Positions 47,571 to 64,000 of a DNA stretch of 64,000 nucleotides are shown in pieces (position 1 is the stretch's first letter; each line of letters starts with the position of its first letter). A program made the translations under genes and the position numbers. Under the pieces are notes generated by a model that saw only the letters and a program-made list of their open reading frames with translations, searched no databases and had not been told where the DNA came from. Source of the DNA: Longimicrobiales bacterium (GTDB taxonomy: Bacteria; Gemmatimonadota; Gemmatimonadetes; Longimicrobiales; Gaopeijiaceae); contig CAXXKM010000003.1 of assembly GCA_963664435.2 (NCBI GenBank), positions 1,088,001 to 1,152,000 of the forward strand, given 5' to 3'.

Positions 47571-48071
47571 AGAAGTGGCGCCCACCCAAGGGACGGAAGC
47601 CGCCGAAGCGGAGGGTGGGGCAACGTCCGTCGCGCAAGCCACGGAAACAACGGCGGCGCCGCCGGGACAAGGGCCGGTGGGAGAAGGAAACAGACGACCG
47701 GATCGAGTGATCAGGTTCGGCACGTCGTCGGAACCACGCGTAGCGCGCCCAAACCTCTCTGCCGTATCGATCCGCCGGGGCCAACCGGAGCCGGTCGTAT
47801 GCTCCTGCCCGCGTCCAGCGACGTTGCCACTCCGGGGCGCGTGCGAGATGGGACCGTCGGAGGGCGGCGGGTCGATCACCCTGCGGGTCGCTGACTGCGT
47901 GGCTGACGGGCGCCGCACTTTGGTGTCCACGGTGGATCCGTGAACGTTCGGTAACCGCGCCACCCGGCCGGCGGGAAACTTCGAGAGCCGCGCCGCGCAG
48001 GTTGCGTGAGCCGGGGCTGGTGGGTGCCTCCTCGTCGTGGTGGTGGTCGCGCGGGACGGGCCGGTTGGGCC

Positions 48072-48232
48072 CGTCCGGCGGGTATTGAGTCGGTTCCGGC
48101 CTTCGGCGAACTCAAACTCTCCGGCCTTCGTTCGACGATTCGCGCTTCACGGACCGGACCGGAGTTACCGGTCTCCGCGCGCGTTCGGGGCGCTTGCGCG
48201 CCTCCGGTTCCGGCGGGCCTCGCCGTACCTGC
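48072..48232 (-). ncRNA. Putative omegaRNA/gRNA scaffold overlapping the 3' end of the tnpB-like gene
   Basis: Clear similarity to both 58.5-58.95 kb repeats; TnpB omegaRNAs are known to overlap the tnpB 3' end. Confidence 0.6.
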
Positions 48233-49194
48233 AGTTGGCGCCCGTGCCAACGGGCCTTGTACTCGAGCTGGCGCAGCATCTCGCTGCTGACGCCCTCGAC
48301 GATGATCGTGCCGGCGGCGAGGACGACGATGGTGGTGAGCTTGTGGTGGCGGTCGCGCTCGCGGTTCCTGATGTTCCTGGCGACATTGCGGAACCGTTCG
48401 AGAACGCGGGCCCGCCGCTTCGAGTCTTCGGTGCAGCGGCTCAAGCGGCGCTGGAGCCGCCTCATCCGCTGCCTGTCGGCGTCGGAGCGCTCGTCCGGTC
48501 CCGGGACTTCGATGGGCCTGCCGTCGAGTTCGACGGCGATGCCCGGGCCGTCCTGGCGCACCACGGCGACCTCCGCCGTGGGCGCGGCGGCATCGACCGG
48601 GCCGCACTCGAACACGCACGAGAACATCCAGCGCTCGCCGGCGTCGCGCCAGACCCGGCCGTACACCATGCCGAGCGTCGTGCGGCTCTTCGGGCCCTCG
48701 AGCCGGCCAGCGGGCAGGCTCCCGCCCAGCCAGCGCATCCAGCCGAACTTCGGCAAGCGGACGCGGTTGCCGTCGAAGCGGGTGCCGTGGCTGGCCACGT
48801 AGATCCCGGGGGCGCGTCCCTCGGGCTTGAACCTCGGCAGCCCCTGGCGCGCGCGTGGCTTGGTGTGCCAGTTGCGGAACGCTCCGTGCATGTCGGTCGC
48901 GATCTGGTAGATGGCGGTGGACGGGAACGGGTCGCGGTTCGGCCTGCGGCGCCACCAGTCCTGGGCGGCCGCGCGGAACTCCTTGCCGGTCATGTGCCGG
49001 CCCGTCTGGGAATACTGCAGGTTCGAGGCGCCGAGCAGGGCGTTCGACAGCTCGCGGAGCCCCTCCCGGCACAGGGCGAGCAGGCGCGCCTGCGGCCGGT
49101 TCGGGTACAGGCGGCACTGCCAGCCGACGTAGCGCGCTTCCCCGTTCGGCCGGGCCGCGCGCGCGCCGGGCGCGGTCGGCCGCTTGGTCGCCAT
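48112..49194 (-). CDS. TnpB-derived protein, truncated and apparently nuclease-dead (TldR-like)
   Basis: CRLYPNRPQ, PRFK, RVRLPKFGWMR, RRLQRRLSR, HHKLTT, IIVEG and QLEYKARWHGR match TnpB. RuvC-I G(I/V)D is absent (AVVRQ); zinc finger and RuvC-III are missing. Strong RBS, 16 bp after the upstream stop. Confidence 0.85.
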   Translation of the reverse strand: MATKRPTAPGARAARPNGEARYVGWQCRLYPNRPQARLLALCREGLRELSNALLGASNLQYSQTGRHMTGKEFRAAAQDWWRRRPNRDPFPSTAIYQIATDMHGAFRNWHTKPRARQGLPRFKPEGRAPGIYVASHGTRFDGNRVRLPKFGWMRWLGGSLPAGRLEGPKSRTTLGMVYGRVWRDAGERWMFSCVFECGPVDAAAPTAEVAVVRQDGPGIAVELDGRPIEVPGPDERSDADRQRMRRLQRRLSRCTEDSKRRARVLERFRNVARNIRNRERDRHHKLTTIVVLAAGTIIVEGVSSEMLRQLEYKARWHGRQLQVRRGPPEPEARKRPERARRPVTPVRSVKRESSNEGRRV

Positions 49195-49210: not shown

Positions 49211-52200
49211 CTACCGGAGCTTGATCCGTCCGCGGACGCCCACCGAGTGCTGGGCCGCACCCAGCGCGCTCTCGCGCCGCGTGCCTTCCAGCCGCAGCCC
49301 GACCCCCGCGCCCAGATCGTAGCGCACGCCGCTCGAGAAGGCGCGCGTCCCGCTCTTGCCGAGGTAGAAGCCGCTGTAGGGCGTCCCCTGGAAGCCGGCG
49401 ATGCCGTAGGCCACTTCGCCGTCCACGTTGGGGCCCATGCCCAGGTCCTGGCCGCCCACCGCGTCGGACACCCCGCGCTCCCAGAGCTGGTTGACCCCGC
49501 TCCTGTGGTCGCCGTACGCGGGCGCCACCCGGACCTGCAGCCCCTGGCCCGGGGCCGCCGGGTCGAACATGAGCATGCCGCCGAGGCCCCATTCCTCGTA
49601 GCCTTGGCGCGCCGAGATGACGAACCGGCCGCGGCCCTCCGCGGTCAATCCCAGCCCGGAGTTCGTGTAGCGGAGCCCGCCGCCGACCTCCGCGCTGGTG
49701 CCGTTGATGCCGTCGCCGTTGTCGTAGCGCATCCCGCCCTCGAGCACGAACGCCATCTCCTGCCCCGTGTCGGTGCGGAAGCCTTGCGTCAACTCAAGGG
49801 CAAGCTTGGCGCGCTGCATGTCGAGCGTCACCGTGCCGATCTGCTCGGTGCCCTCGACCTCGAACCGGCCGCTCCAGCCCTCGGCCTTGAGGCTCACGCC
49901 ACCGATGCCGCTCGTGAACAGCTGGTAGCTCGCGCCTCCCGCCCCCGTCATCATGCTGGCGGGGCTGGTGCGGAGCCCTTCCCGCTCGTCGTCGACCTCG
50001 ATGTCGCCCCGGCCGATCCCGGCCGAACCCCACACCGAGGCGCCGCGCGCGCCGGGGAACCAGGCCACGTAAGGATGCGCGCTGGTCATGGTGGTGCCGT
50101 AGGTGCCGGCCACCGGTCGGGCGCCGGTCTTGTCGGTGAAGTCGAAGGAGCCCGAGTTGTACGAGCCCGCGACACCCGCCAGGATGTCCGGCCCCACGCG
50201 CATGTCCACGCCGACGTGGGCGCTCACCATGTTGCCCTTCCAGTCGAGCTCGCTCGCGCCGGGTTCGCCCATGTAGTGGTACTCGCCCGCACCCCAGCTC
50301 GCCATCTGCATGCCGGTCGCGGACTGCTGCGGCGCGTCCGGGGTGCCGAACGGCATCAGGAATGAGGTGCCGCCGAATAGGGCGGCCAAGCCGGCGCCGT
50401 CATTCTGGCCGAGGCCGAGGCCGCCCGGACCCGGCGCGGACAGGCTCGCGGCCATCGACGACAGTCCGTTCGTCTCCACGCTCTGCTCCATGCCCATCCC
50501 GTTGGCCACCGCGTTGACGCGGTTTGCGATCGCCGAGACGGTGCTCGAGGTCATCGCCGCGGCCACCTGCGGCAGGACGCGGGTGTTGAGCCGGCCCGCC
50601 CGCTGCACGGGGTCGTCGGTCGCCGCCGTTGCGCTCGCAGACGCCGCGCCGGTGCCCGCCCGGTTGATCGCCGACACCCGGTAGTGGCGCACGCTGCCCG
50701 GCTGCAGGGCGGTATGCGAAAAGGTGGCAACCGTGGACTCGGTGTTGGTGACCAGGTCCGCCCAGGCGGCGCCCGTCTCCGACACCTCGATGCGGTACCC
50801 GGTGATGGGCGCACCGCCATTGTAGTCGGGCGCGAGCCAGAACAGGTCGATCTGGGTGGGCGAGACATCGGTGGCGACCAGCCCGGTGGGCGCGTCGGGC
50901 ACCGTCGCGTCCGTGGTGGAGCCCGCGACCCGCGACGCGTTGCCCACGCCGATCCGGTTGATCGCCGAGACGCGGTAATGGCGCGTCGAGGCCGGCGCCA
51001 GCCCGCTGTGCGTGTAGACGGTGGCCGTGCTGCGCGTGGCGGCCACCAAGTCCTCCCAGCTCCCGCCCCCGTCGGCCGTGACCTCGATGCGGTAGCCGGT
51101 GATGCGGGCGCCCCCGTCGTCCGCGGGTGCCTGCCAGGAGAGGACGATCTGCGAGGTGCCGGCCGCATCGGCGTTGAGACGTCGCGGCACGCTCGGAACA
51201 GTCGCCTCGGTGGTCGCCCGCGCCACGTTCGAGAACGGCCCCACCCCCGCGAGGTTGATGGCGGCGACCCGGTAGTGGCGGGTGGTTGCGGGCCTCAGGT
51301 TCACGTCCGAGAACGCCGTCGTCGCCGAGTTCGTGTTGCGGCGGATGATGTTCCAGGTCGCGCCCTCGTCGTCGGAGGCCTCGACGCGGTAGCCGAAGAT
51401 CGAGACGCCGCCGGTGTAGCGCGGCGCGTTCCACGACAGGTCGATGCGCGAGGTGCCGACTGCCCGGGCCGTCAGCCCAGTCGGGGCCGCGGCGAAGTCC
51501 GCGTGCGTGAGGGCCGCCCCCGTGAGCGACCACTGCCCGGCGCCCACGCGGTTGATGGCCGCGACCTGGTACTGGTACCGGGTCACTGGGTCAAGCCCGG
51601 TGTGCGTAAAGGTCGTTGTCGTCTCCTCCGTGTTGGGACGGATGATGATCCAGGAGCGATCGTTGGGCCCGAGCATCCGGATGCTGTAGCCGGTGATGCG
51701 CGCCCCTCCGTCGCTCTCCGGCCGGTCCCAGACGAGGAGGACGCTGTTCGGTCCCGTTCCGCGGGCGCGTACGTTCTGCGGCTGCCCGGGAGGCGCCGCA
51801 TCGGTGGTGCCTTGGGCCACGTTGGAGGCGCGTCCCGTACCCACGCCGTTGATCGCGGACACGCGATAGAACCAGGTGGCGGCGGGGCCGAGATTGCTGT
51901 CGGTGTAGATGGTGGCCGTGCTGCCCGTGCCGGGCACATGGATGATCCAGCCGCCGCCGCCGGTGGCGGACCTCTCGATGCGGTAGCCGGTGATCGGGCT
52001 GCCGCCGTCGTCGGGCGGGGCGGACCAGGTGAGGAGGAGTTCGTCGGTTCTCCTCGCGCCCGGAACCACGCTCAGTGCTATGGGCGGGCTCGGAGGGGTG
52101 GCGTCGGTGGTCGCCTGGGCGGTGTTGGACCACGGGCCCAGACCCGCCCGGTTGATCGCTGCTACGCGGTAGTGGCGCGTGGTGGCGGGGCTGAGCTCGT

Positions 52201-53509
52201 CGTCGGTGTAGGTGGTGGCCGTGGACTCGGTGTCGGCCTCGAGCCGCGTCCAGGGGCTGCGTCCGGCCCGCGACCATTCGATGCGGTAGCCGGTGACCGG
52301 CGTCGAGCCGCTGGAGGAGGGGGCGCGCCACCTCAGTTCGATGGCGGACATCCCCCGGGCCTGCGCCGTCAACGACCGAGCCGCGTCCGGCAGGACATCC
52401 TCGGTGGTGGCGTCGGCGACGTTCGAGGGGTCACCCGCCCCGTTGAAGTTGATGGCCGACACCCTGTAGTGCCGCGTGACGCCCCCGGTGAGATCCTTGT
52501 CGTCGCGGTAGCTGGTGTCGGTGTTCCGGGTATTGCGCTCCAGAGTCGACCACGGGTCGCGGCCGTCTTCCGACCACTCGATGAGGTACCCGGTGATCTC
52601 GCGACCGCCATTCGAACTCGGCGCCTCCCACTCCAGTATGATCGCGTCGGGGCCGTCGGCCTCCGCCGTGAGCTTGCGCGGCTCTCCGGGCACCCCGGTG
52701 CGCGCCTCCCCGGTGACGTTTCGCACCGCCCTGTCGAAGCCGAACGCGCGATTGCCGGCCAGATCCCGAAGCGCGTCGGCGCCGCGGTCGTCGTAGAACA
52801 CCCGAACCGCGTCGAGCGTATCGACGGGGCTTGCCAGAAGCAGGAACACATCGCGGGTGGCCACTTCGACCCGGGACACGGTCTTGACGTCGTGTGACAC
52901 GGTGCTATTTCCGAAGGCGACTTGGAAATAGCTGGTCGATGGGACGAAATCCTCATCGAGGTCTTCGTCGAAGGCGATGACGACTTCGTCGCCGTTGACC
53001 TTCGCGTCGCTGACTACAGGGCCCCTGGTGTCCACGTTGATGTTGACCACTCTCGACGGGGTATTCCCCTCCTGCGAGCTGTTCTGCACCACGTTCCCAG
53101 GGATATGGAAGAACACCAGGCCGTCATATTGTTCCGGCATCCTCATCGTGACGACAAACCTCCTGCCTTCGTCACTGTCCAGCGGATCGGCCACTGCACA
53201 CGCCGCGGTCGGGTGCGTGCACGTGATGTTGATGTCGTCGACCGTGAAGCCGGTCACGCTCTGCGAGAAACGGATGACGACGCTGGCAGAGTTCTGTGTG
53301 GACCCGATCCAACTCCATGAAATCGAGGTCGTGGGGGGGACGGCCACGTCGCTCGCCACTGGGGATTCCACAACCGACGGGACGCCCGCACGCGAACCGC
53401 CCACATATGGCTCCTCAGCCTGTACGCCCGCAGATGGAACCAGGAGCGCGCAGACCACTGCGGCCGCCAAGAGGGAACGGACGGGTACGCCAGGCTGATT
53501 CGGAATCAT
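49211..53509 (-). CDS. Large surface protein: Ig-like and SwmB-like regions, 7 fibronectin-III repeats, autotransporter-like beta-barrel
   Basis: Signal peptide; 7 repeats of W.AP..GG..ITGY.IE...YRV.AIN..G.G; C-terminal beta-barrel-like region. Confidence 0.85.
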   Translation of the reverse strand: MIPNQPGVPVRSLLAAAVVCALLVPSAGVQAEEPYVGGSRAGVPSVVESPVASDVAVPPTTSISWSWIGSTQNSASVVIRFSQSVTGFTVDDINITCTHPTAACAVADPLDSDEGRRFVVTMRMPEQYDGLVFFHIPGNVVQNSSQEGNTPSRVVNINVDTRGPVVSDAKVNGDEVVIAFDEDLDEDFVPSTSYFQVAFGNSTVSHDVKTVSRVEVATRDVFLLLASPVDTLDAVRVFYDDRGADALRDLAGNRAFGFDRAVRNVTGEARTGVPGEPRKLTAEADGPDAIILEWEAPSSNGGREITGYLIEWSEDGRDPWSTLERNTRNTDTSYRDDKDLTGGVTRHYRVSAINFNGAGDPSNVADATTEDVLPDAARSLTAQARGMSAIELRWRAPSSSGSTPVTGYRIEWSRAGRSPWTRLEADTESTATTYTDDELSPATTRHYRVAAINRAGLGPWSNTAQATTDATPPSPPIALSVVPGARRTDELLLTWSAPPDDGGSPITGYRIERSATGGGGWIIHVPGTGSTATIYTDSNLGPAATWFYRVSAINGVGTGRASNVAQGTTDAAPPGQPQNVRARGTGPNSVLLVWDRPESDGGARITGYSIRMLGPNDRSWIIIRPNTEETTTTFTHTGLDPVTRYQYQVAAINRVGAGQWSLTGAALTHADFAAAPTGLTARAVGTSRIDLSWNAPRYTGGVSIFGYRVEASDDEGATWNIIRRNTNSATTAFSDVNLRPATTRHYRVAAINLAGVGPFSNVARATTEATVPSVPRRLNADAAGTSQIVLSWQAPADDGGARITGYRIEVTADGGGSWEDLVAATRSTATVYTHSGLAPASTRHYRVSAINRIGVGNASRVAGSTTDATVPDAPTGLVATDVSPTQIDLFWLAPDYNGGAPITGYRIEVSETGAAWADLVTNTESTVATFSHTALQPGSVRHYRVSAINRAGTGAASASATAATDDPVQRAGRLNTRVLPQVAAAMTSSTVSAIANRVNAVANGMGMEQSVETNGLSSMAASLSAPGPGGLGLGQNDGAGLAALFGGTSFLMPFGTPDAPQQSATGMQMASWGAGEYHYMGEPGASELDWKGNMVSAHVGVDMRVGPDILAGVAGSYNSGSFDFTDKTGARPVAGTYGTTMTSAHPYVAWFPGARGASVWGSAGIGRGDIEVDDEREGLRTSPASMMTGAGGASYQLFTSGIGGVSLKAEGWSGRFEVEGTEQIGTVTLDMQRAKLALELTQGFRTDTGQEMAFVLEGGMRYDNGDGINGTSAEVGGGLRYTNSGLGLTAEGRGRFVISARQGYEEWGLGGMLMFDPAAPGQGLQVRVAPAYGDHRSGVNQLWERGVSDAVGGQDLGMGPNVDGEVAYGIAGFQGTPYSGFYLGKSGTRAFSSGVRYDLGAGVGLRLEGTRRESALGAAQHSVGVRGRIKLR

Positions 53510-53683: not shown

Positions 53684-56600
53684 TTATGGGACATCTACTG
53701 GCGTACCCTCGGTGAAGTCGCCAGCACTGCCCTGTCTCGAGTCGACGCGAACTCTGAACGGCTTGTTGAGTTCGACGTCCGTGATCGCAATCGCCGTTCC
53801 ACCCACCGTGTTCCAGCTCGCGGTGAAGTCATGAATCCACTCCAAGCTCCAACTCCTGGTGGTGCTTGCGATGGTGGCGGGCTCTCCACCTGAGGCGACG
53901 AGCCACAAAGTCGAACCAGTGTTTTCGGAGGCGACCTCAACCATGATCCGGAACTCGGAACTGGTGTTGCTATCGGCGTCCCAAGTGACGGTGAGGGTGT
54001 CGGCAACGGTGGTATCGGCAGTCGCCGCACGACTCGCAGTGACACCGCTGGTCGACGGATCGACCGCGCCGACCGTGACCGGATCGGATTCGATCGTGAA
54101 GGTAAGGTCCGAATCGGTGGGGTGTGCGACCGACGTCACCACTCGAACCATGAAGGTGGTATCGCCCGGCGACGTGAACGTGTAGCTGCCCGGGACATTG
54201 ACCGTAGTGCCGAGGCTGTCGCGCGTCACCAAGGTTGCGCTCGCATCCGTGAAGGTGCCGGTGTAGTTGTGCTGCACCTCGTGCGTGGCGGGGCTGGTGA
54301 ACCCTTCGGGCACGTCCGTGGCGCTGTCGACGAACTTCACGCTGATGTTGCCATCGTAGCGTTCGGATTCGTCGATGTCCTCGGTGGACTCGTCGTCCTC
54401 CGTGCGGGCACGCGATGCGCTGAGGTTCCTAGCCCCAGGCGACAGCGCCTCGATCGCGCCGAAGTTCAAGCTCTGACCCGGTGCGACGCTCACCCTCTGG
54501 TTGTCGTTCGGATACTTGAAGCTGTGGTTCGCCAACGACGCTTCGATGTCATAGGCGCCGAACGGTACGCTGAGCACGAAGGTGCCTCTCGCGTTGCTGG
54601 TGCTCAAGACGTCGTCCCCGGCTGCGCCTGCGACCACGTTCGTGGCCGTGACCGTAACGCCACCCATGGCGTTGCCGTCCGGACCTCTCACCCGGCCCGA
54701 AATCGTCGCATGCTGGAAGCCGGTGAAGTTGATGCCCGAGACCGCCGATCCGGCGTGGGCCGGAACAGACAGCGTCGCAGGCGCGAAGCTCATGCCGTCC
54801 TTCGACACGGTCACATCGGCGCTCTCGCCGAGGTCCTTGGCCGCGAATTCTGCCGTGTAGGTGCCGTCGGCGCCCGTCACGAGCTTGCCCCTGTTCGCAC
54901 CGGTCTTGGCCGCGTTGGTCGGGGCATTGCCGTCAACCTTGATCTCCGCACCGGCGATCGGCGCGCCGCTGCCGGACGCGGTGACCGTACCGCTGATCGA
55001 GGCGATCGTGCCTACGCCCGAAAGATCGACGTCCTGCCGGATCCGGCTGTTTGCGGCAAAGGCCTGGATGTTCCGCGTCTCCCCGCTTCCTCCATGGGCG
55101 GTCTCGACGAAGACGCTGTTCGTGTGCGTCACGGTGCCGATTTTGCGGCTCGCCACGTTCGGCACGTACTCCGCGATGTAGCGGCCGTGTACGTCGGACA
55201 TCGCTACAACACCGTTCACGTTCACGTTCACGCTGTCCACGGGGAAATCCTCCGCGTCCTTCACGTAGCCGTAGACGGTGGTCGTCGCCGGCGTGACGTC
55301 GAGTGAGACGTCACCCGCGAGCGGGTTGAAGGCGTTGCCGACCATGGCCGTGGCGCCCTTCGGACCCAGCCTCGCCCGCCAGCCGTCCGTCACGCTGGCC
55401 TTGTAGACGCCGGCCGCGATGTTGTTGAAGGCGAACTGGTGGGTCTCGTCGAGCACTTCATTGCCCTTGGCGGTCTCACCCGGCCCCCGGACCGGCTTCT
55501 CCGTAGTGGTGGCGGACTCCTCGTCACCCGCGAGATTCTTGCCCTCGACCGGGCTCAGGCTGACGGAAATGCCGGCTACGAACGTGGGGGGGGCACCCTC
55601 GGGATCATATACGTCGACTCCGTCGGTCTTGCCGAACGAGAATCTGTCATCGTTGGCAGTCTCGGTGCTCTTGACGACCACGTTCTTCCAGATCAGCCCG
55701 CTCACCGAGTGCGTGCTGACGTAGGCGAACGACGAGCAAGCGTCGTGGTCCTGCGGGTTCTCGTCCTGCAGCGGGCAGAGCGAAACCGTGTGGCTGTAGC
55801 CGCCCTGCGCACCGAAGTGGCCGCCGGTGATGCCGTTGGCATCCGTGCCGGTGTAGGCGGCGAGCTCATCGGCATGCCCGCCCTCATCGAGGATCATGAT
55901 GCTGAGGTCGGTGTTGTCGGCCTTCGACGCGTTGGCGATCACGTTCATGTCGGCCGGCACGTTGCTGAAGACCCACGCACCGCCGTCACCATTGTCTTTC
56001 GGTTCGCTGATGCTGTCCGCAGCCGTGAACGCGCGCGAGCGTCCGGAGTCGTCGATGTAGCGGAGGTCGACATCGACCTTGCGGTCGGCGCCCTTACCGT
56101 CCCTCTCGTCACCGCCGAGGATGTTGCCGGTGTAGCCTTCGACTTGATCAAGCTCGTGGTGCACGTAGACCTTGAGGGTCTGGGTCGTGAACGCCACCTC
56201 GATCATGTCGGCGTTCTGGGTGCCCGCCAGCATGAGGCCGGTGTGGGTGTACTCGACCGAGCCACCGTCGTAGCTCTCGCCGCCGTCCAGCGTGTTGGCC
56301 TGGTCGTCGTCGACGGCGATGGTGAAGGTCGCCGGCAGGTCGTCGGCTCCCACGGTGGTCGTGAACGCGGCGACGCCGGCTGTGTCCAGCTTCTCCGGCG
56401 CGCCTGCGACCGAGTCTTCGCCTGCCATGACGCTGATGGCCCAGTTGGCGAGCGTGTCGCCGCCACCGTACTCGGTGGTGACGGTGGCACCGCTGATGGC
56501 CACGTCGACGTTCAGGTTGACGATGTCGTTCTCGTTGGCGCCCGCGGCCATGTTGTACTGCGGGTTCCACGACACGACCGTCATGCCGTCGGCCACATGG

Positions 56601-58330
56601 TAGCCGTCGGCGGAGACGCTCGCGTGGACCATGTTGCCGCTGGTGCCGGCGCGCGCGACCCGGATCATCACCGAGCCTTCTTCGCCGGTCATGCCGCTGC
56701 CGATCTTGGTCTCACCGGCCGCGTCCGAGAAGAAATCGACGATCGCGCCGGGAAGCGCGGCACCCATCTCTTCACCGCTCCTCAGCGAGGCTGTGAAGTT
56801 GACCCTGGTGTGCGTGATGTCGAACGGAACCGACTGCGTCACAGCCTCGCCGACACCGAGGGCGACCGCGTAGCCCTCGCCGGGTCCGCCGTAAGCCAAG
56901 TCGTTGGCCGCGAGAGCCGCGGCGACCGTGGCGTTGATGGTCACGACCAACTGGTACGGGCCGGCGCGGAGGCCTGTGAAGGAGAACGCGCCGGTCGAGT
57001 CGGTGAGGCTCACCCGCTGCTCGTTGACGCCCGGGCCCACCAGCACCACCGGAAGACCGGCGTGCGCCAGCGGATGCTCGCCCTCGTCGAACATGTCGTT
57101 CTTGGTCGCCTCGTCAACGTACGCCATGCCGGACACGCTCGCGGTGCGCGCGTGCGCGCCCTCGAAGTTAATGATCGCCGACTCGTCGTCGCCGACCGTC
57201 ACGTCCGTGCTCATCGACTCGAAGACGTAGGCGTCGCTGTCGACCGCGATCGAGACCGTGTAGTCGCCGGCCGCCAAGCCCGCGAAGGAGTACTGGCCGC
57301 CCGCGTCGGTCATCGCGGTGCGGTCGTCCGCGCCCGCCAGCGTGACCGTGATCTCGCCGAGGCCCATGCCCTCGACGCTCACCCGGCCGCTGATGCCGGA
57401 GGTGCGGAGCAGGACGCCGGTGAACGACACGGTGCTGGTCTCATCGAGATCCACGTTCACGTCTTGGGACGTGGACGCGAACTCGTAGTCGCGCGCGTCG
57501 AAGTCAGAGATCGAGACCGTGTAGGCGCCGGGACGCAATTCCTCGAACCGGTACATGCCGTCGGCGTCGGTCATGATGGTGTAGCTCTCGTCGGCGGGAC
57601 CGCCGCTCAGGGTAACCGTCACCCCAGCAAGGCCCTCGCCTTCGATGATCACCTGGCCCTCGACCGCGGAGGTGCGGATGAAGTGGCCCGTGAAGTCGGC
57701 CTGGCCGACATCGCCGACCTCGACCGCTACCTCGACCATCACCGTCTCGAAGGAGACGTCCTCCGGATAGTCGCTGATCGTGACCGTGTAGGTGCCGGCC
57801 CGGAGCCCGGTGAACGCGAAGCCGCCGGTCTCGTCGGTCTCCATGGTCTCGCCCATGGCGTGCTCACCGCCCAGCGTGACCGTAACGCCTGCCAGCGTTT
57901 CGGGCTGGCCGTCGCCGCCGCTCATCATGGCGTCGGCCGCAACCACGTTGCCGACCACTGCGGACGAGCGGATATACTCGCCGGCGAAGTTGAGTTGGAC
58001 GTTCTGACCATCGGTCGCGATGGTCGCGGACTGCGTCACTTCGGCGAACGTCGCGTCCTCGGGGAAGCCGCTGATGGTGACCGTGTAGGTTCCCTCTTCC
58101 ACGCCCGAGAAGGCGAAGTTGCCGCCCGACCCGGTGGTCGTGGTCGCACCGGACGACAGGGTGGCGGTGACGCCGCTGGCGGCCGTGCCCTCGATCGTCA
58201 CCGCCCCGGAGATCGTCCCCACGGCAGCAGGCTCCGGCGGGGGCTCCACTATCGGTGGAGTGCCCTCGTCGCAGGCGGTAATGGTAACGGCCAGCAGCAG
58301 CGCCAGCCCGTGCTTGGTAAAACGGTTCAT
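53684..58330 (-). CDS. 1548-aa acidic surface lipoprotein with carboxypeptidase-regulatory/SdrD-B-like repeats
   Basis: Lipobox ITAC; repeats of G(I/V)TVTL.G....T...G.(F/Y).F.GL.AG.Y.V.IS; GGAGGG RBS. Confidence 0.85.
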   Translation of the reverse strand: MNRFTKHGLALLLAVTITACDEGTPPIVEPPPEPAAVGTISGAVTIEGTAASGVTATLSSGATTTTGSGGNFAFSGVEEGTYTVTISGFPEDATFAEVTQSATIATDGQNVQLNFAGEYIRSSAVVGNVVAADAMMSGGDGQPETLAGVTVTLGGEHAMGETMETDETGGFAFTGLRAGTYTVTISDYPEDVSFETVMVEVAVEVGDVGQADFTGHFIRTSAVEGQVIIEGEGLAGVTVTLSGGPADESYTIMTDADGMYRFEELRPGAYTVSISDFDARDYEFASTSQDVNVDLDETSTVSFTGVLLRTSGISGRVSVEGMGLGEITVTLAGADDRTAMTDAGGQYSFAGLAAGDYTVSIAVDSDAYVFESMSTDVTVGDDESAIINFEGAHARTASVSGMAYVDEATKNDMFDEGEHPLAHAGLPVVLVGPGVNEQRVSLTDSTGAFSFTGLRAGPYQLVVTINATVAAALAANDLAYGGPGEGYAVALGVGEAVTQSVPFDITHTRVNFTASLRSGEEMGAALPGAIVDFFSDAAGETKIGSGMTGEEGSVMIRVARAGTSGNMVHASVSADGYHVADGMTVVSWNPQYNMAAGANENDIVNLNVDVAISGATVTTEYGGGDTLANWAISVMAGEDSVAGAPEKLDTAGVAAFTTTVGADDLPATFTIAVDDDQANTLDGGESYDGGSVEYTHTGLMLAGTQNADMIEVAFTTQTLKVYVHHELDQVEGYTGNILGGDERDGKGADRKVDVDLRYIDDSGRSRAFTAADSISEPKDNGDGGAWVFSNVPADMNVIANASKADNTDLSIMILDEGGHADELAAYTGTDANGITGGHFGAQGGYSHTVSLCPLQDENPQDHDACSSFAYVSTHSVSGLIWKNVVVKSTETANDDRFSFGKTDGVDVYDPEGAPPTFVAGISVSLSPVEGKNLAGDEESATTTEKPVRGPGETAKGNEVLDETHQFAFNNIAAGVYKASVTDGWRARLGPKGATAMVGNAFNPLAGDVSLDVTPATTTVYGYVKDAEDFPVDSVNVNVNGVVAMSDVHGRYIAEYVPNVASRKIGTVTHTNSVFVETAHGGSGETRNIQAFAANSRIRQDVDLSGVGTIASISGTVTASGSGAPIAGAEIKVDGNAPTNAAKTGANRGKLVTGADGTYTAEFAAKDLGESADVTVSKDGMSFAPATLSVPAHAGSAVSGINFTGFQHATISGRVRGPDGNAMGGVTVTATNVVAGAAGDDVLSTSNARGTFVLSVPFGAYDIEASLANHSFKYPNDNQRVSVAPGQSLNFGAIEALSPGARNLSASRARTEDDESTEDIDESERYDGNISVKFVDSATDVPEGFTSPATHEVQHNYTGTFTDASATLVTRDSLGTTVNVPGSYTFTSPGDTTFMVRVVTSVAHPTDSDLTFTIESDPVTVGAVDPSTSGVTASRAATADTTVADTLTVTWDADSNTSSEFRIMVEVASENTGSTLWLVASGGEPATIASTTRSWSLEWIHDFTASWNTVGGTAIAITDVELNKPFRVRVDSRQGSAGDFTEGTPVDVP

Positions 58331-58549
58331 CTTTCCCTCCTGGGAGTGGGTTGCGGTCAGCGAGGAAACATGGAGCCTCGCGGCTCACGCTTACGGAGCA
58401 ACAACGGTGCCACCCGAGGAAGCCCGGTTTTACAGTGGGTTTCGGCCCGTACGCTCCGGCCTGGGACCGCCGCTCCCGGTTTTCTGACGGTCAAGACGTC
58501 AGAATTCTGGTGGCGCCCCGGGGCCGGGCCCCGCGTAGCGGTTAAAGCG

Positions 58550-58738
58550 ATTCCGGCAGTCGCTGGGTCGGTCCCGGGGGGTGCCCGGCTCTGTATCGCG
58601 ATTCACGGTTCAGCGACCGCCACGGTAGCCGAAGCCCCATGGTAACCCGGTCTCCGCGTGCGTTCGGGACGCCAAGGTCCCCGGTTCCGGCGTGCCTCGC
58701 CGTACCGTAACAGGGTTGCGCGCCGCGTTTGACGCCGC
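58550..58738 (-). ncRNA. omegaRNA-like scaffold copy A (putative guide follows at <=58549)
   Basis: 189-bp direct repeat of 58765-58952; homologous to the tnpB 3' end at 48072-48232. Confidence 0.7.
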
Positions 58739-58764
58739 CAAGCCGCACTATAGCGGCACACCAA

Positions 58765-58952
58765 ATTCCGGCAGTCGCTGGGGCGGTCCCGCGGGCCGCC
58801 CGACTCTGCATCGCGATTCACGGTTCAGCGACCGCCACGGCAGCCGAGGCCCCACGGTAACCCGGTCTCCGCGTGCGTTCGGGACGCCAAGGTCCCCGGT
58901 TCCGGCGTGCCTCGCCGTACCGTAACAGGTTGTGTGCCGCGTTTGACGCCGC
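58765..58952 (-). ncRNA. omegaRNA-like scaffold copy B (putative guide 58739-58764)
   Basis: 188-bp direct repeat; its 5' end translates as NAAHNLLRYGE, resembling the TnpB RuvC-III/C-terminal motif. Confidence 0.7.
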
Positions 58953-60994: not shown

Positions 60995-61333
60995 ATGCCA
61001 GAGCGCCGCACCGCCGTCGTCACCGCCCGCGTATCGGCGACCGAGTTCGCCGACTGGCGGGCCAAAGCCGCAGCCGCAGGCGTGCCCCTGTCGGCGCTCA
61101 TCCGGCGAGCCATGGCCCGTACTCGGACCTGGACGGCCCGCGCGGCCGAGGTCGAGCGCGAGCGCACCCGGGAGGCCGGCCGCATCGGCAACAACCTCAA
61201 CCAGATCGCTCGGTGGGCAAACACCCACAAGGGGTCGGCCGAGGCCGTCGAGGTGATCGCCCGCCTTGTCGCCATAGAGCGGGCCCTCACGGCGCTTGCT
61301 CGCTTCGAGAGCCCGGACTCCGATGCACATTAA
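60995..61333 (+). CDS. mobC: Relaxosome accessory protein MobC (MbeC-like)
   Basis: RHH-like N-terminus plus RIGNNLNQIAR motif. Confidence 0.9.
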   Translation: MPERRTAVVTARVSATEFADWRAKAAAAGVPLSALIRRAMARTRTWTARAAEVERERTREAGRIGNNLNQIARWANTHKGSAEAVEVIARLVAIERALTALARFESPDSDAH

Positions 61334-62867
61334 GTTCCTGGCGCACGGGACCGGCTCGGCCGGCAAGGCGGCTGGCTACCTGTTGGGGGAGCGGGACGCC
61401 GCCGGGAAGCCGCGCGAGGGCGTCGAGGTGCTGCGCGGGAACCCGGACATGGTGGCCGCGGTGGCCGATTCGCTCGACTTCGAGCACAGGTACACGTCCG
61501 GCGTGATCGCCTGGGCGCCGGACGACCAACCCACCGACGAGCAGATCGAGGCGGTCCTGGACGCCTTCGAGAAGACGGCCTGGGCGGGACTGGAACCCGA
61601 CCGCTACGCATGGGCGGCCGTGCTCCACCGCGAGCGCGGCGGAGGGGCTCACGTCCACGTCCTTGCCGCACGGTGTGACCTCGAAACCGGCCGCAGCCTC
61701 AACATCGCGCCTCCGGGATGGCGGAGGGCGTTCGATCCGCTCCGCGACGCCTTCAACCACGAGCACGGCTGGAGCCGGCCGGACGATCCGGCCAGGGCCA
61801 GAGTGCAGCACCCCGGCCACCGCGCCTACGTCGAAGCGGCACAGCTGCGGGCCGGGCTCCGGCTCGAATCCTCCCCCCGCGACCTGATCCGGGACTACCT
61901 GTTTCAGAGGGTCGAGCACGGCACGGTGCGGAATCGCCACGATGTCGTGTACGCACTGCGGGAGGCGGGCCTCGAAGTGCCGCGCCAGGGCAAGGACTAC
62001 CTCACCGCGCTCGACCCCGAGACCGGGGACCGGTGGCGGCTGAAAGGAGAACTGTATGGAGAGAACTTCGACCGCGAACGATTTGACCGAACGGCTGCGG
62101 AGACGGCTGGAGAGCGAACGCAGGGAGATCGAGGAGTTGACCGCGAGCGAGCTCGCACAGCTCGCCGAGAACTCGCGGCGCGTCGTGAGGAACGCGCTGC
62201 GTACCATCGAGCGCGATACGGAGGAGGCGACCGGGCGGATGCGCGAGTTGCTGGTCAAGGCGTGGCTCCGGCCGCTGATCGTCGGCCTGAGTCTTTGGAT
62301 CGGTTTCTTCGGCGGAAGCTGGGCGACGATGCGCTGGTTGGCGGGCAGCATTCAGGACCGGATCGTGACCCGCGCCGAACTAAACCGGGACATCGAGGAC
62401 GCCCGGCGAACGCTGGCCCAACTGGAGGTGGATACCTGGGGGCTCGTGTTCCACGAGATCGAGGGCGAGCGGTTCGTGGTGGTGCCGGACGGGGTGCTGG
62501 CCGATCCGCCCTGGTGGGTGGACGGGGATCGTCCGGCGTTGAAGCTGTCGAACGAGTAAAGGAGGTCTATGACGCGTTAGAGGAGCAGTTGACGAGAGCC
62601 TTGCGGAGGCTGTGCGCGCAGTACGAAACGGAACAGCGGCGGCACTCCGGGCAGGTCGAAGCCTTGCAGCGGCAGGTCGAAGCCTTGCAAGGGCGCGTCG
62701 AGCGGCAAAGCGGGGAGAACGAAGCCTTGCGGCAGCACGTCGAGCGGCAGAGCGCGGAGAACGAAGCCTTGCAGATGCGAATCGAGCGGCTCGACGCGCT
62801 AGCGACACGCTTGGCCGAGTATTCCGGGACATCCGCCGTCGCGAGACCGCGCGGCCTCGGTATCTGA
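61323..62867 (+). CDS. mobA: Relaxase, ColE1 MbeA/MOBP5-like
   Basis: MHIKF...GTGS...YLL, RYTSGVIAW, HRE...HVHV, TGRSLNIAPP; coiled-coil tail. Confidence 0.9.
   Translation: MHIKFLAHGTGSAGKAAGYLLGERDAAGKPREGVEVLRGNPDMVAAVADSLDFEHRYTSGVIAWAPDDQPTDEQIEAVLDAFEKTAWAGLEPDRYAWAAVLHRERGGGAHVHVLAARCDLETGRSLNIAPPGWRRAFDPLRDAFNHEHGWSRPDDPARARVQHPGHRAYVEAAQLRAGLRLESSPRDLIRDYLFQRVEHGTVRNRHDVVYALREAGLEVPRQGKDYLTALDPETGDRWRLKGELYGENFDRERFDRTAAETAGERTQGDRGVDRERARTARRELAARREERAAYHRARYGGGDRADARVAGQGVAPAADRRPESLDRFLRRKLGDDALVGGQHSGPDRDPRRTKPGHRGRPANAGPTGGGYLGARVPRDRGRAVRGGAGRGAGRSALVGGRGSSGVEAVERVKEVYDALEEQLTRALRRLCAQYETEQRRHSGQVEALQRQVEALQGRVERQSGENEALRQHVERQSAENEALQMRIERLDALATRLAEYSGTSAVARPRGLGI
62056..62559 (+). 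CDS. MbeB-like mobilization protein nested in the relaxase gene (alternative frame)
   Basis: AAGGAG RBS, coiled coil plus TM helix, nested position as in ColE1 mbeB. Confidence 0.7.
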   Translation: MERTSTANDLTERLRRRLESERREIEELTASELAQLAENSRRVVRNALRTIERDTEEATGRMRELLVKAWLRPLIVGLSLWIGFFGGSWATMRWLAGSIQDRIVTRAELNRDIEDARRTLAQLEVDTWGLVFHEIEGERFVVVPDGVLADPPWWVDGDRPALKLSNE

Positions 62868-63048
62868 TGCGCCGCCCGGGACCGGACCGCGATCAGGGTC
62901 CGAGCCGCTGACGATGGCGTCCAGTCGCTTGCCACCCGAACGCCGCAGCGTCCGGCGCGCCGTCAACCGCCCGTCTGGCGGAGACGCCTTGCCGAAGCGA
63001 AGTTTCAAACGCGCAGATCGTGCGGTCCATCACGAGAGGAATCGAGTG

Positions 63049-64000
63049 ATGGCACGCACGAAACGAAGTCGGCGCTCGTACAGCGCCGGCGAATGGGGCC
63101 GGAATCGGGTCCGGGTCTTTACCGATCCCAGAACCGGCATCATCCAGGTCGACTGGCGCGAGAACGGGCGCAGGCTCACCCGGTCGCTGAAGCACCGCGA
63201 CTGGGCGCTGGCCAAGAAGCAGGCCGACGAGATCGCCGCCGGGCTCGCCGAGCCGGTGGCCGCGGGCCCGGCCGAAGCCGAGCTCGAGCCGCTCACCCTC
63301 AAGACGCTTTTTGACATCTACGTTGAAGAGGTGACGCCCACCAAGGCGGACTCGTCTCAGCAGTCCGACCGGGCCGCGATGCGGATGTTCCTCCGGTTCT
63401 TCGGGAAGCACCGAAAAGCCGCGACGCTCTCCCGGCGTGACTGGGATCGCTTCATCCGGGCGCGCCGCGCGGGAAAGGCCGGCGGCAGCCGTCGGCCCGT
63501 CGCCGGCCGGACCATTCAAAAGGACCTGAAGTTGCTGCTCGCGGTCCTCAATTGGGCCGCGAGATCGCGGGACGAGGAGGGAAGGCTCCTCCTCGCGTCG
63601 AATCCGCTCCGGGGCCTCAAGTCTCCGACCGAGAAGAACCCGCTCCGGGTGACGCTCACCCAAGCGGAGTACGAGGCGCTGCTTCGGGTGGCCGGGGACG
63701 TGGATTGGCGGTTCCGCGTGGCTCTGGTTCTTGCCCACGAGACGGGACACCGTATCGGGGCGATCTGCAAGCTTCGCTGGTCCGATGTCGACCTCGAGGC
63801 TAGGACCATCCGGTGGCGCAGCGAACACGAGAAGACCGGGTACGAACACCAAACGCCGATCACCTCCATGGCGCGGGCCATTCTGGTGGAGGCGCGCAGG
63901 CGCAACCCCGGGATCGGCGACGCGCCGGTGATGCCCGCGCCGAAGGACCCTTCGGCGTGCATGACCCGCTGGCTGGCGAGCGGTTGGTGGAAGAAGGCCG
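63049..64000 (+). CDS. Tyrosine recombinase/integrase (partial, runs off the window)
   Basis: Manual translation MARTKRSRRSYSAGEWGRNRVRVF...; box I LAHETGHRIGAICKLRWSDVDL and catalytic Lys region EHEKTG. Confidence 0.88.
   Translation, partial: MARTKRSRRSYSAGEWGRNRVRVFTDPRTGIIQVDWRENGRRLTRSLKHRDWALAKKQADEIAAGLAEPVAAGPAEAELEPLTLKTLFDIYVEEVTPTKADSSQQSDRAAMRMFLRFFGKHRKAATLSRRDWDRFIRARRAGKAGGSRRPVAGRTIQKDLKLLLAVLNWAARSRDEEGRLLLASNPLRGLKSPTEKNPLRVTLTQAEYEALLRVAGDVDWRFRVALVLAHETGHRIGAICKLRWSDVDLEARTIRWRSEHEKTGYEHQTPITSMARAILVEARRRNPGIGDAPVMPAPKDPSACMTRWLASGWWKKA

Follow-up and report, generated by a model that had tools for sequence, protein, structure and literature searches.

What might a TnpB do once it has lost nuclease parts and kept both an open frame and its RNA? 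The question is raised by one gene in the 64,000-nucleotide stretch of a Longimicrobiales genome analysed here (the window, whose positions are used throughout). The answer that we consider likely is that a domesticated, nuclease-dead TnpB with a short guide RNA sits on the starts of rival lipoprotein genes and blocks their transcription, so that the protein pair of the carrier cassette is displayed. By sequence criteria the protein would belong to a TldR-like clade, of which the lineage, the target and a second RNA segment directed to the opposite strand appear to be new. The gene is made up as follows:

48112-49194, minus strand: tldR-like gene for a truncated TnpB of 360 aa, predicted to be nuclease-dead; open reading frame from ATG
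48556-48558, minus strand: R213, at the RuvC-I Asp position by alignment; Asp in 0/34 truncated homologues
48286-48297, minus strand: retained RuvC-II Glu300, followed by the loss of 19 lid residues, by alignment
48228-48255, minus strand: junction region of a 152-nt deletion (zinc finger and RuvC-III gone, frame shifted)

An earlier note had placed the feature at 48112-48600; the gene reaches 49194, and the RNA 3' end and the guide lie within 48054-48228, partly outside that interval. The lesions that it read were borne out by alignment. The RuvC-I motif, EVAVVRQDG from residue 208, is not canonical, as R213 stands opposite the RuvC-I Asp of ISDra2 TnpB, a position that is D in 44/44 intact relatives aligned. 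The segment after the RuvC-II Glu, said to be shortened, reads IIVEGVS-SEMLRQLEYK and is 19 residues shorter than in the full-length kin P0036 and P0038 and in ISDra2. HGRQL is followed, as had been noticed, by the DNA GTACGGCGAGG, which encodes RYGEARRNR in another frame; this is the genuine C-terminal frame of full-length relatives, where it comes after the zinc finger and RuvC-III. Measured against locus L009 the deletion is 152 nt, hence the frameshift after HGRQL. The junction is without differences in short-read contigs from 4/4 runs and is therefore not a long-read error. The frame and the RNA scaffold, conserved from 48228 on, are indeed kept. The claim that the nuclease parts are lost holds for the RuvC-I Asp, the lid, the zinc finger and RuvC-III, but not for the RuvC-II Glu, E300 still being present.

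In profile searches the 360-aa protein matches OrfB_IS605, and TnpB models score under cut-off. Structure prediction, a check that the earlier note had suggested, gave a TnpB-like fold for residues 21-326 (mean pLDDT 80.4), with 8h1j as the top Foldseek match (E 6.6e-21); in the AlphaFold model the core folds over about 21-326 and the frameshifted tail (327-360), whose coding DNA overlaps the RNA, is disordered. The protein shares its fold with ISDra2 TnpB (PDB 8h1j, 8exa, 8bf8; TM 0.50-0.54), where the RNA likewise overlaps the gene 3' end, whereas ISDra2 has the D-E-D triad, the lid, the zinc finger and an IS605/TnpA context. All this points to a truncated TnpB that is predicted to be nuclease-dead.

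A first search found 37 proteins among 7,997 scored, and both deletions occur in 27/29 aligned proteins, the 8 partial proteins of the 37 being left out of that alignment. The 82-row set used for the tree, without fragments and ids above P0095, comprises 44 proteins with D-E-D, 34 truncated ones, all of them lacking the RuvC-I Asp, and 4 of full length in which Ala takes the place of this Asp (3/4 also without the RuvC-III Asp). In a quick tree the truncated homologues form a single clade (support 100), the full-length dead proteins are grouped (support 99) as its sister (support 99), and both groups are nested inside the D-E-D proteins. On this quick tree, nuclease loss by substitution, D to A in the full-length sister group, would have preceded truncation. 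The truncated proteins fall into two subclades about 53% identical (clade 1, that of the window, and clade 2). The case that would have spoken against the earlier note, a private deletion with intact IS TnpBs as closest homologues, did not hold: the proposed homologue alignment finds the same deletions fixed in 34 proteins of two subclades. Over residues 21-320, dN/dS is 0.25-0.60 in 14/14 comparisons; the WED/REC half is the best conserved part, and the frameshifted tail shows no constraint as protein. By these measures the truncated clade is under purifying selection and the window protein is not a private pseudogene. Streamlining, which had been preferred to random pseudogenization, fits the fixed deletions and the selection, with the qualification that substitution-type nuclease loss would have come first.

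Named records with homologues are mostly MAGs of Gemmatimonadota, Longimicrobiales and Ca. Palauibacter, presumably from sponge-associated communities, going by the record names. Any match at all was found in 10/150 family genomes, and strong matches only in 3/4 same-genus genomes. The window's own genome (G000) carries two tldR paralogues at 52% identity plus a second identical copy, which lies inside a 16-kb inverted duplicate at a contig end (G000:C3:1778178-1794204, 99.87% to about 42-58 kb of the window); the duplicate begins inside the lipoprotein gene and is probably an assembly duplicate, because short-read depth is flat. The intact relatives (L304-L311; P0041, P0042, P0047, P0052) are 35-44% identical to the full-length dead P0036, and the closest retrievable intact loci include some borne on IS1595. 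As a separate observation, a more distant full-length TnpB (L170:6209-7400) has Ala at RuvC-I and no RuvC-III Asp; it lacks the family scaffold and has a lipoprotein gene as its neighbour.

The RNA that would go with the protein is laid out at the 3' end of the gene and just beyond:

48097-48228, minus strand: predicted omega/guide RNA scaffold, with a 5' hairpin (loop GGCC) at 48211-48228
48122-48129, minus strand: predicted pseudoknot 3' strand, copy one
48110-48121, minus strand: segment 1, complementary over 11/12 nt to the sense strand (codons 3-7) of paralogous lipoprotein genes
48097-48104, minus strand: predicted pseudoknot 3' strand, copy two, immediately before the guide
48085-48096, minus strand: predicted guide of 12 nt (9 nt in an alternative register), following the last pseudoknot copy
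48054-48076, minus strand: 9-bp hairpin immediately after the guide, possibly a 3' end signal

Close to the RNA 3' end lies a strand of 4 nt that can pair with the loop of the first hairpin; the pair takes the forms GGAA/TTCC, GGCA/TGCC and GGCC/GGCC across the intact, full-length dead and truncated groups. Such covariation is as expected of a TnpB-type pseudoknot; in the RNA of ISDra2 TnpB the pseudoknot stands just before the guide. In the truncated clade the 3' strand is duplicated. RNAalifold found two-sided change in only 1/32 pairs, with a method that cannot show a pseudoknot, and Rfam returned one sub-threshold hit only, at another place. The intact relatives share the scaffold plan and a YGEERRN C-terminus, but differ in their intact catalytic residues and, for L308 and L309, in being borne on IS1595: each of these two lies between inverted repeats and target-site duplications and has an IS1595 transposase upstream. 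Their target-site duplications begin immediately after TTCC+G, which places the guide start without reference to any target. In these IS1595-family elements the right inverted repeat provides the pseudoknot strand, and no paper on carriage of TnpB with IS1595 was found in the portion of the literature accessible to our search.

The surroundings of the gene suggest what such an RNA could be directed to:

49211-53509, minus strand: FN3-repeat protein with a C-terminal autotransporter barrel, ending 16 bp before tldR
53684-58330, minus strand: predicted surface lipoprotein of 1548 aa with CarboxypepD_reg/SdrD_B repeats
58398-58412, minus strand: sigma-54-type box (-24/-12) upstream of the lipoprotein gene
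58541-58920, minus strand: following what is left of a TnpB 3' end, a tandem pair of 215-bp orphan scaffolds; both are of the full-length dead type and both have a predicted guide of their own
60995-63999, plus strand: MobC/NikA, relaxase and integrase genes at the edge of an integrative mobile region (context)

The order lipoprotein gene, FN3/autotransporter gene, tldR forms a cassette. A giant-lipoprotein or FN3-autotransporter gene is present in 27/33 loci, full-length dead forms included, and 5/6 loci without one have under 1.8 kb of upstream sequence. Clade-2 tldR lies behind the gene of a 287-aa protein (L045:8964-9827 and kin), divergent from the lipoprotein gene; this protein has no Pfam hit and a weak AraC-like HTH lead. 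A sigma-54-type box stands 77-142 nt upstream of most lipoprotein genes (18/20 fetched and 5/5 own). Integrase, relaxase and conjugation-like genes lie beside the window's cassette, and no viral contig was found.

The protein is TldR-like by the following: (i) at least two of the D-E-D residues are lost (Arg at RuvC-I, RuvC-III deleted, E300 retained), (ii) the remaining TnpB fold is retained and under selection, (iii) a conserved guide-RNA scaffold lies downstream, (iv) no transposase is adjacent and the gene is linked to non-transposon genes and (v) the guide matches the 5' region of a related gene. The described linkage to fliC_P, oppF or csrA is not seen, the neighbours being lipoprotein and FN3-autotransporter genes. 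An active IS200/IS605 TnpB would have an intact triad, a zinc finger and TnpA; the first two are lacking, and no Y1 TnpA (Y1_Tnp match) was found in the window's genome, which is 96% complete. Nor does the locus resemble Cas12k, Cas12m or dCas12f: a tandem-repeat scan gave no CRISPR array, and there are no cas, Tn7 or sigma-factor neighbours.

In the 4.5 Mb of the genome the window's guide has a single non-self match of 12/12, at the start codon (ATG) of a lipoprotein paralogue (G000:C1:913503), a guide and target that the earlier note had not pointed out; the lipoprotein copies on C2 have 1 mismatch and C1:1100388 has 2. The start of the own-cassette lipoprotein (MNRFTK) matches at 8/12 nt, the initial 6 contiguous, and own-cassette lipoprotein genes begin MNRFTK, MSRFTK or MNRFLK. 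In 16 genomes, 27/30 guides match a paralogue 5' end at at least 11/12 nt, against 0.24% of random 12-mers, counts that overstate the case as the genomes are kin with about two independent guide origins. The pattern overlooked a single G113 guide, and the paralogue loci of G160-G168 were retrieved using guide-like patterns. Guides matching poorly are those of G153 (10/12) and G158 (8/12), and rival-gene starts were not found in the incomplete G154, G165 and G166. As expected beforehand, G152, the genome that carries the L006 guide variant, has a start variant that matches it; three loci (L124, L144, L145) have two tandem guide variants each. The matches suggest a candidate TAM of ..AT or ..TT in the homology register, in which the L005 and L006 guides are mismatched at the TAM-proximal base, or TGAA in a shorter one; the latter, with 9-10 nt, also fits these sites. 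Intact relatives have ..TA.

In 4/4 carriers the guide of clade 2 has its match in the leader of the likely resident lipoprotein copy, on the template strand, and the site was not found in the non-carrier G005; contrary to prediction, variant clade-2 guides (C for G near the 3' end) are without covarying targets in 4/4 genomes having the site. A collection-wide scan for this site gave chance matches in unrelated genomes. The guides that go with the full-length dead proteins gave no convincing target site. The guide of the second orphan scaffold matches 12/12 at the start codon of a TonB-dependent receptor gene, which we take to be SusC-like (G000:C1:893433); in 5 kin, which have other orphan guides or none, this match was not found. 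For the guide of the first scaffold, no site turned up even with one mismatch allowed.

These matches bear on a first alternative, which would make the gene a decaying hitch-hiker, its RNA ending at TCAA, the true guide being the variable flank and the start-codon match arising by chance. IS200/IS605 right ends carry TCAA, and in clade 1 this motif stands just before the divergence point and pairs with an upstream TTGA; besides, a 14-nt match at C3:1188112 includes flank bases, and dN/dS is below 1 only moderately. TCAA is however missing there in clade 2 and in the full-length dead group, while covariation of the pseudoknot strand extends to every group; those intact relatives whose ends can be seen are borne on IS1595 and not IS605, the C3:1188112 site was not found in G113, and two unrelated guides match one gene family. 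We regard this alternative as highly improbable. A guide placed after TCAA was tried and set aside, its flanks being unconserved and its target inconsistent; the 14-nt match, not found in G113, was treated as chance, and so was a 12-nt one at 1199778 (both to the guide 3' part plus flank, in a low-GC island).

The segments G000:C2:1-13363 and 54609-67971 are identical in inverted orientation; two lipoprotein genes that otherwise differ have their promoter and first ~360 nt within this identity, which would be either an invertible expression locus or an assembly artefact. In six genomes the third codon of lipoprotein genes, which falls within the clade-1 guide site, shows one and the same change from CGA to a TGA stop (G000:C2:13002 and 54970; L056, L111/L150, L155, L172, L174), the remaining frame being open where seen; an escape allele, a hot spot and shared ancestry are alternative accounts. 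That the allele tracks clade-1 carriage was dropped, as it is also found in genomes where only clade 2 was found. In another alternative the complex would not repress lipoprotein genes but mark their 5' ends for gene conversion, inversion or integration, an RNA-guided recombination or cassette exchange that would suit the position of both guide sites within the conserved 5' end, the common start and later divergence of the two C2 copies, the presence of 5'-truncated paralogues and the integrase and relaxase genes close by. Yet no recombinase or transposase was found consistently adjacent to tldR among the locus neighbours, assembly artefacts may account for the C2 and C3 duplications, and G005 has many lipoprotein paralogues (about 18) without a tldR match; we hold such an exchange to be quite improbable. 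The G005 set is possibly a repertoire for antigenic variation.

We return to repression at the rival-gene start. The RNA would be expressed with its 12-nt guide, an R-loop would form beside the TAM (..AT, or TGAA in the other register) at the paralogue start, and the complex would be a roadblock to RNA polymerase coming from the sigma-54-type promoter ~85 nt upstream. The surface coat would then switch, the cell showing the lipoprotein/FN3 pair of the carrying cassette, whose own gene would be spared through guide mismatch. In the same genomes clade 2 would target the 5' leader of the likely resident copy and clade 1 the start codon common to the resident copy and clade-2 cassettes, which may establish a hierarchy among cassettes. 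DNA binding and repression by the protein are what we infer here. In the accessible parts of two reports, 9-nt guides suffice (10.64898/2026.09.22.753285), and repression in 5'-UTR assays occurs with the guide TAM end facing the promoter, as it does in the window (10.1101/2023.11.30.569447). Besides the failed covariation of variant clade-2 guides and the poor matches of G153 and G158, two points speak against the proposal: the first 6 guide bases, as many as the reported TldR seed has, also match the own gene, and the orientation of the clade-2 guide is the one with poor repression in the 5'-UTR assays (10.1101/2023.11.30.569447, accessible part).

Clade-1 RNA has staggered complementarity to both target strands. 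Segment 1, which follows the first pseudoknot copy and pairs with the guide over 6 nt, reaches further along the other strand of the target, at 10-11/12 nt in 6/8 clade-1 loci, and a one-base insertion in the segment 1 of one lineage preserves the match to that lineage's differing codons; in clade 2 the complementarity is weak (7-9/12, chance level). It could serve as a stem that pairs with the guide, as a guide in its own right, as an antisense arm or as a clamp for the displaced strand. Bridge RNA and TIGR provide examples in which two RNA segments pair with both target strands. A twin-guide RNA made by the duplicated pseudoknot strand, in which the last segment opens the DNA of the rival-gene start while segment 1 takes hold of the strand so displaced, or else acts as another guide or an antisense arm, is a tentative idea that we hold to be possible though unlikely. 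If true, a 305-residue TnpB core would read two strands of its target, and competing mobile cassettes would use this reading to decide which surface protein is displayed.

The same segment invites a purely RNA-level account, in which it is antisense to codons 3-7 of the paralogue mRNA and causes a translation block or decay, the protein being an RNA carrier. Its antisense match falls at the same site in the 6/8 loci, its DNA match has no adjoining ..AT motif, and the clade-2 guide is antisense to the lipoprotein leader; but the best conserved half of the protein is the one that reads the TAM and DNA, and the clade-1 guide, right after the last pseudoknot strand, is mRNA-sense and could pair with DNA only. 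Silencing at the RNA level seems to us rather improbable, and we keep to the DNA roadblock.

Most likely the system would work as the fliC_P-associated TldR does (Wiegand et al., 10.1101/2023.11.30.569447), with a surface protein supplied by the mobile cassette itself and rival copies silenced by an RNA-guided roadblock. As far as the accessible part of that report goes, these TldRs have lost the ZnF/RuvC C-terminus and end a few residues past the YKQEW motif, so that both are dead TnpBs truncated just after the RuvC-II helix, and both lie beside a surface-protein paralogue with a guide that matches the rival gene and mismatches the own one. They differ in the target (here a lipoprotein of ~1550-1800 aa plus an FN3 autotransporter), in the site (here the start codon or leader, there the promoter -10), in the carrier (here integrative/conjugative-looking, with no viral contig found) and in having here two subclades with different sites per genome, a duplicated pseudoknot strand and an opposite-strand segment. 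The oppF-TldR, in the accessible part of its description (10.64898/2026.09.22.753285), is alike in its 9-nt guide, its target within the transcribed region, its guide, which forms a stem-loop in the apo state, and its non-functional lid, but represses a gene of its own operon, retains RuvC-region residues and the C-terminal domain, and is host-encoded rather than cassette-borne. Host names and family motifs of the truncated clade were not found in the accessible supplements of 10.1101/2023.11.30.569447, nor was a description of the clade in literature searches of openly readable papers, bioRxiv supplements excepted.

Use as a compact CRISPRi-like tool, suggested in the earlier note, loses its point of compactness, which is not new, truncated dead TnpBs being a known kind (TldR): the protein is no smaller than fliC_P-TldR (~310 aa), and its worth would be a new TAM and RNA design. 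For the family, the finding would, if true, mean that TnpB has once more, and independently, been domesticated as a repressor; the stages can be seen in the intact relatives (some on IS1595), in a substituted but still full-length intermediate that lies beside the same cassette, and in the truncated form. For uncultured Gemmatimonadota, it would extend RNA-guided surface remodelling from flagellin to giant lipoproteins, and it suggests silencing of cassette by cassette.
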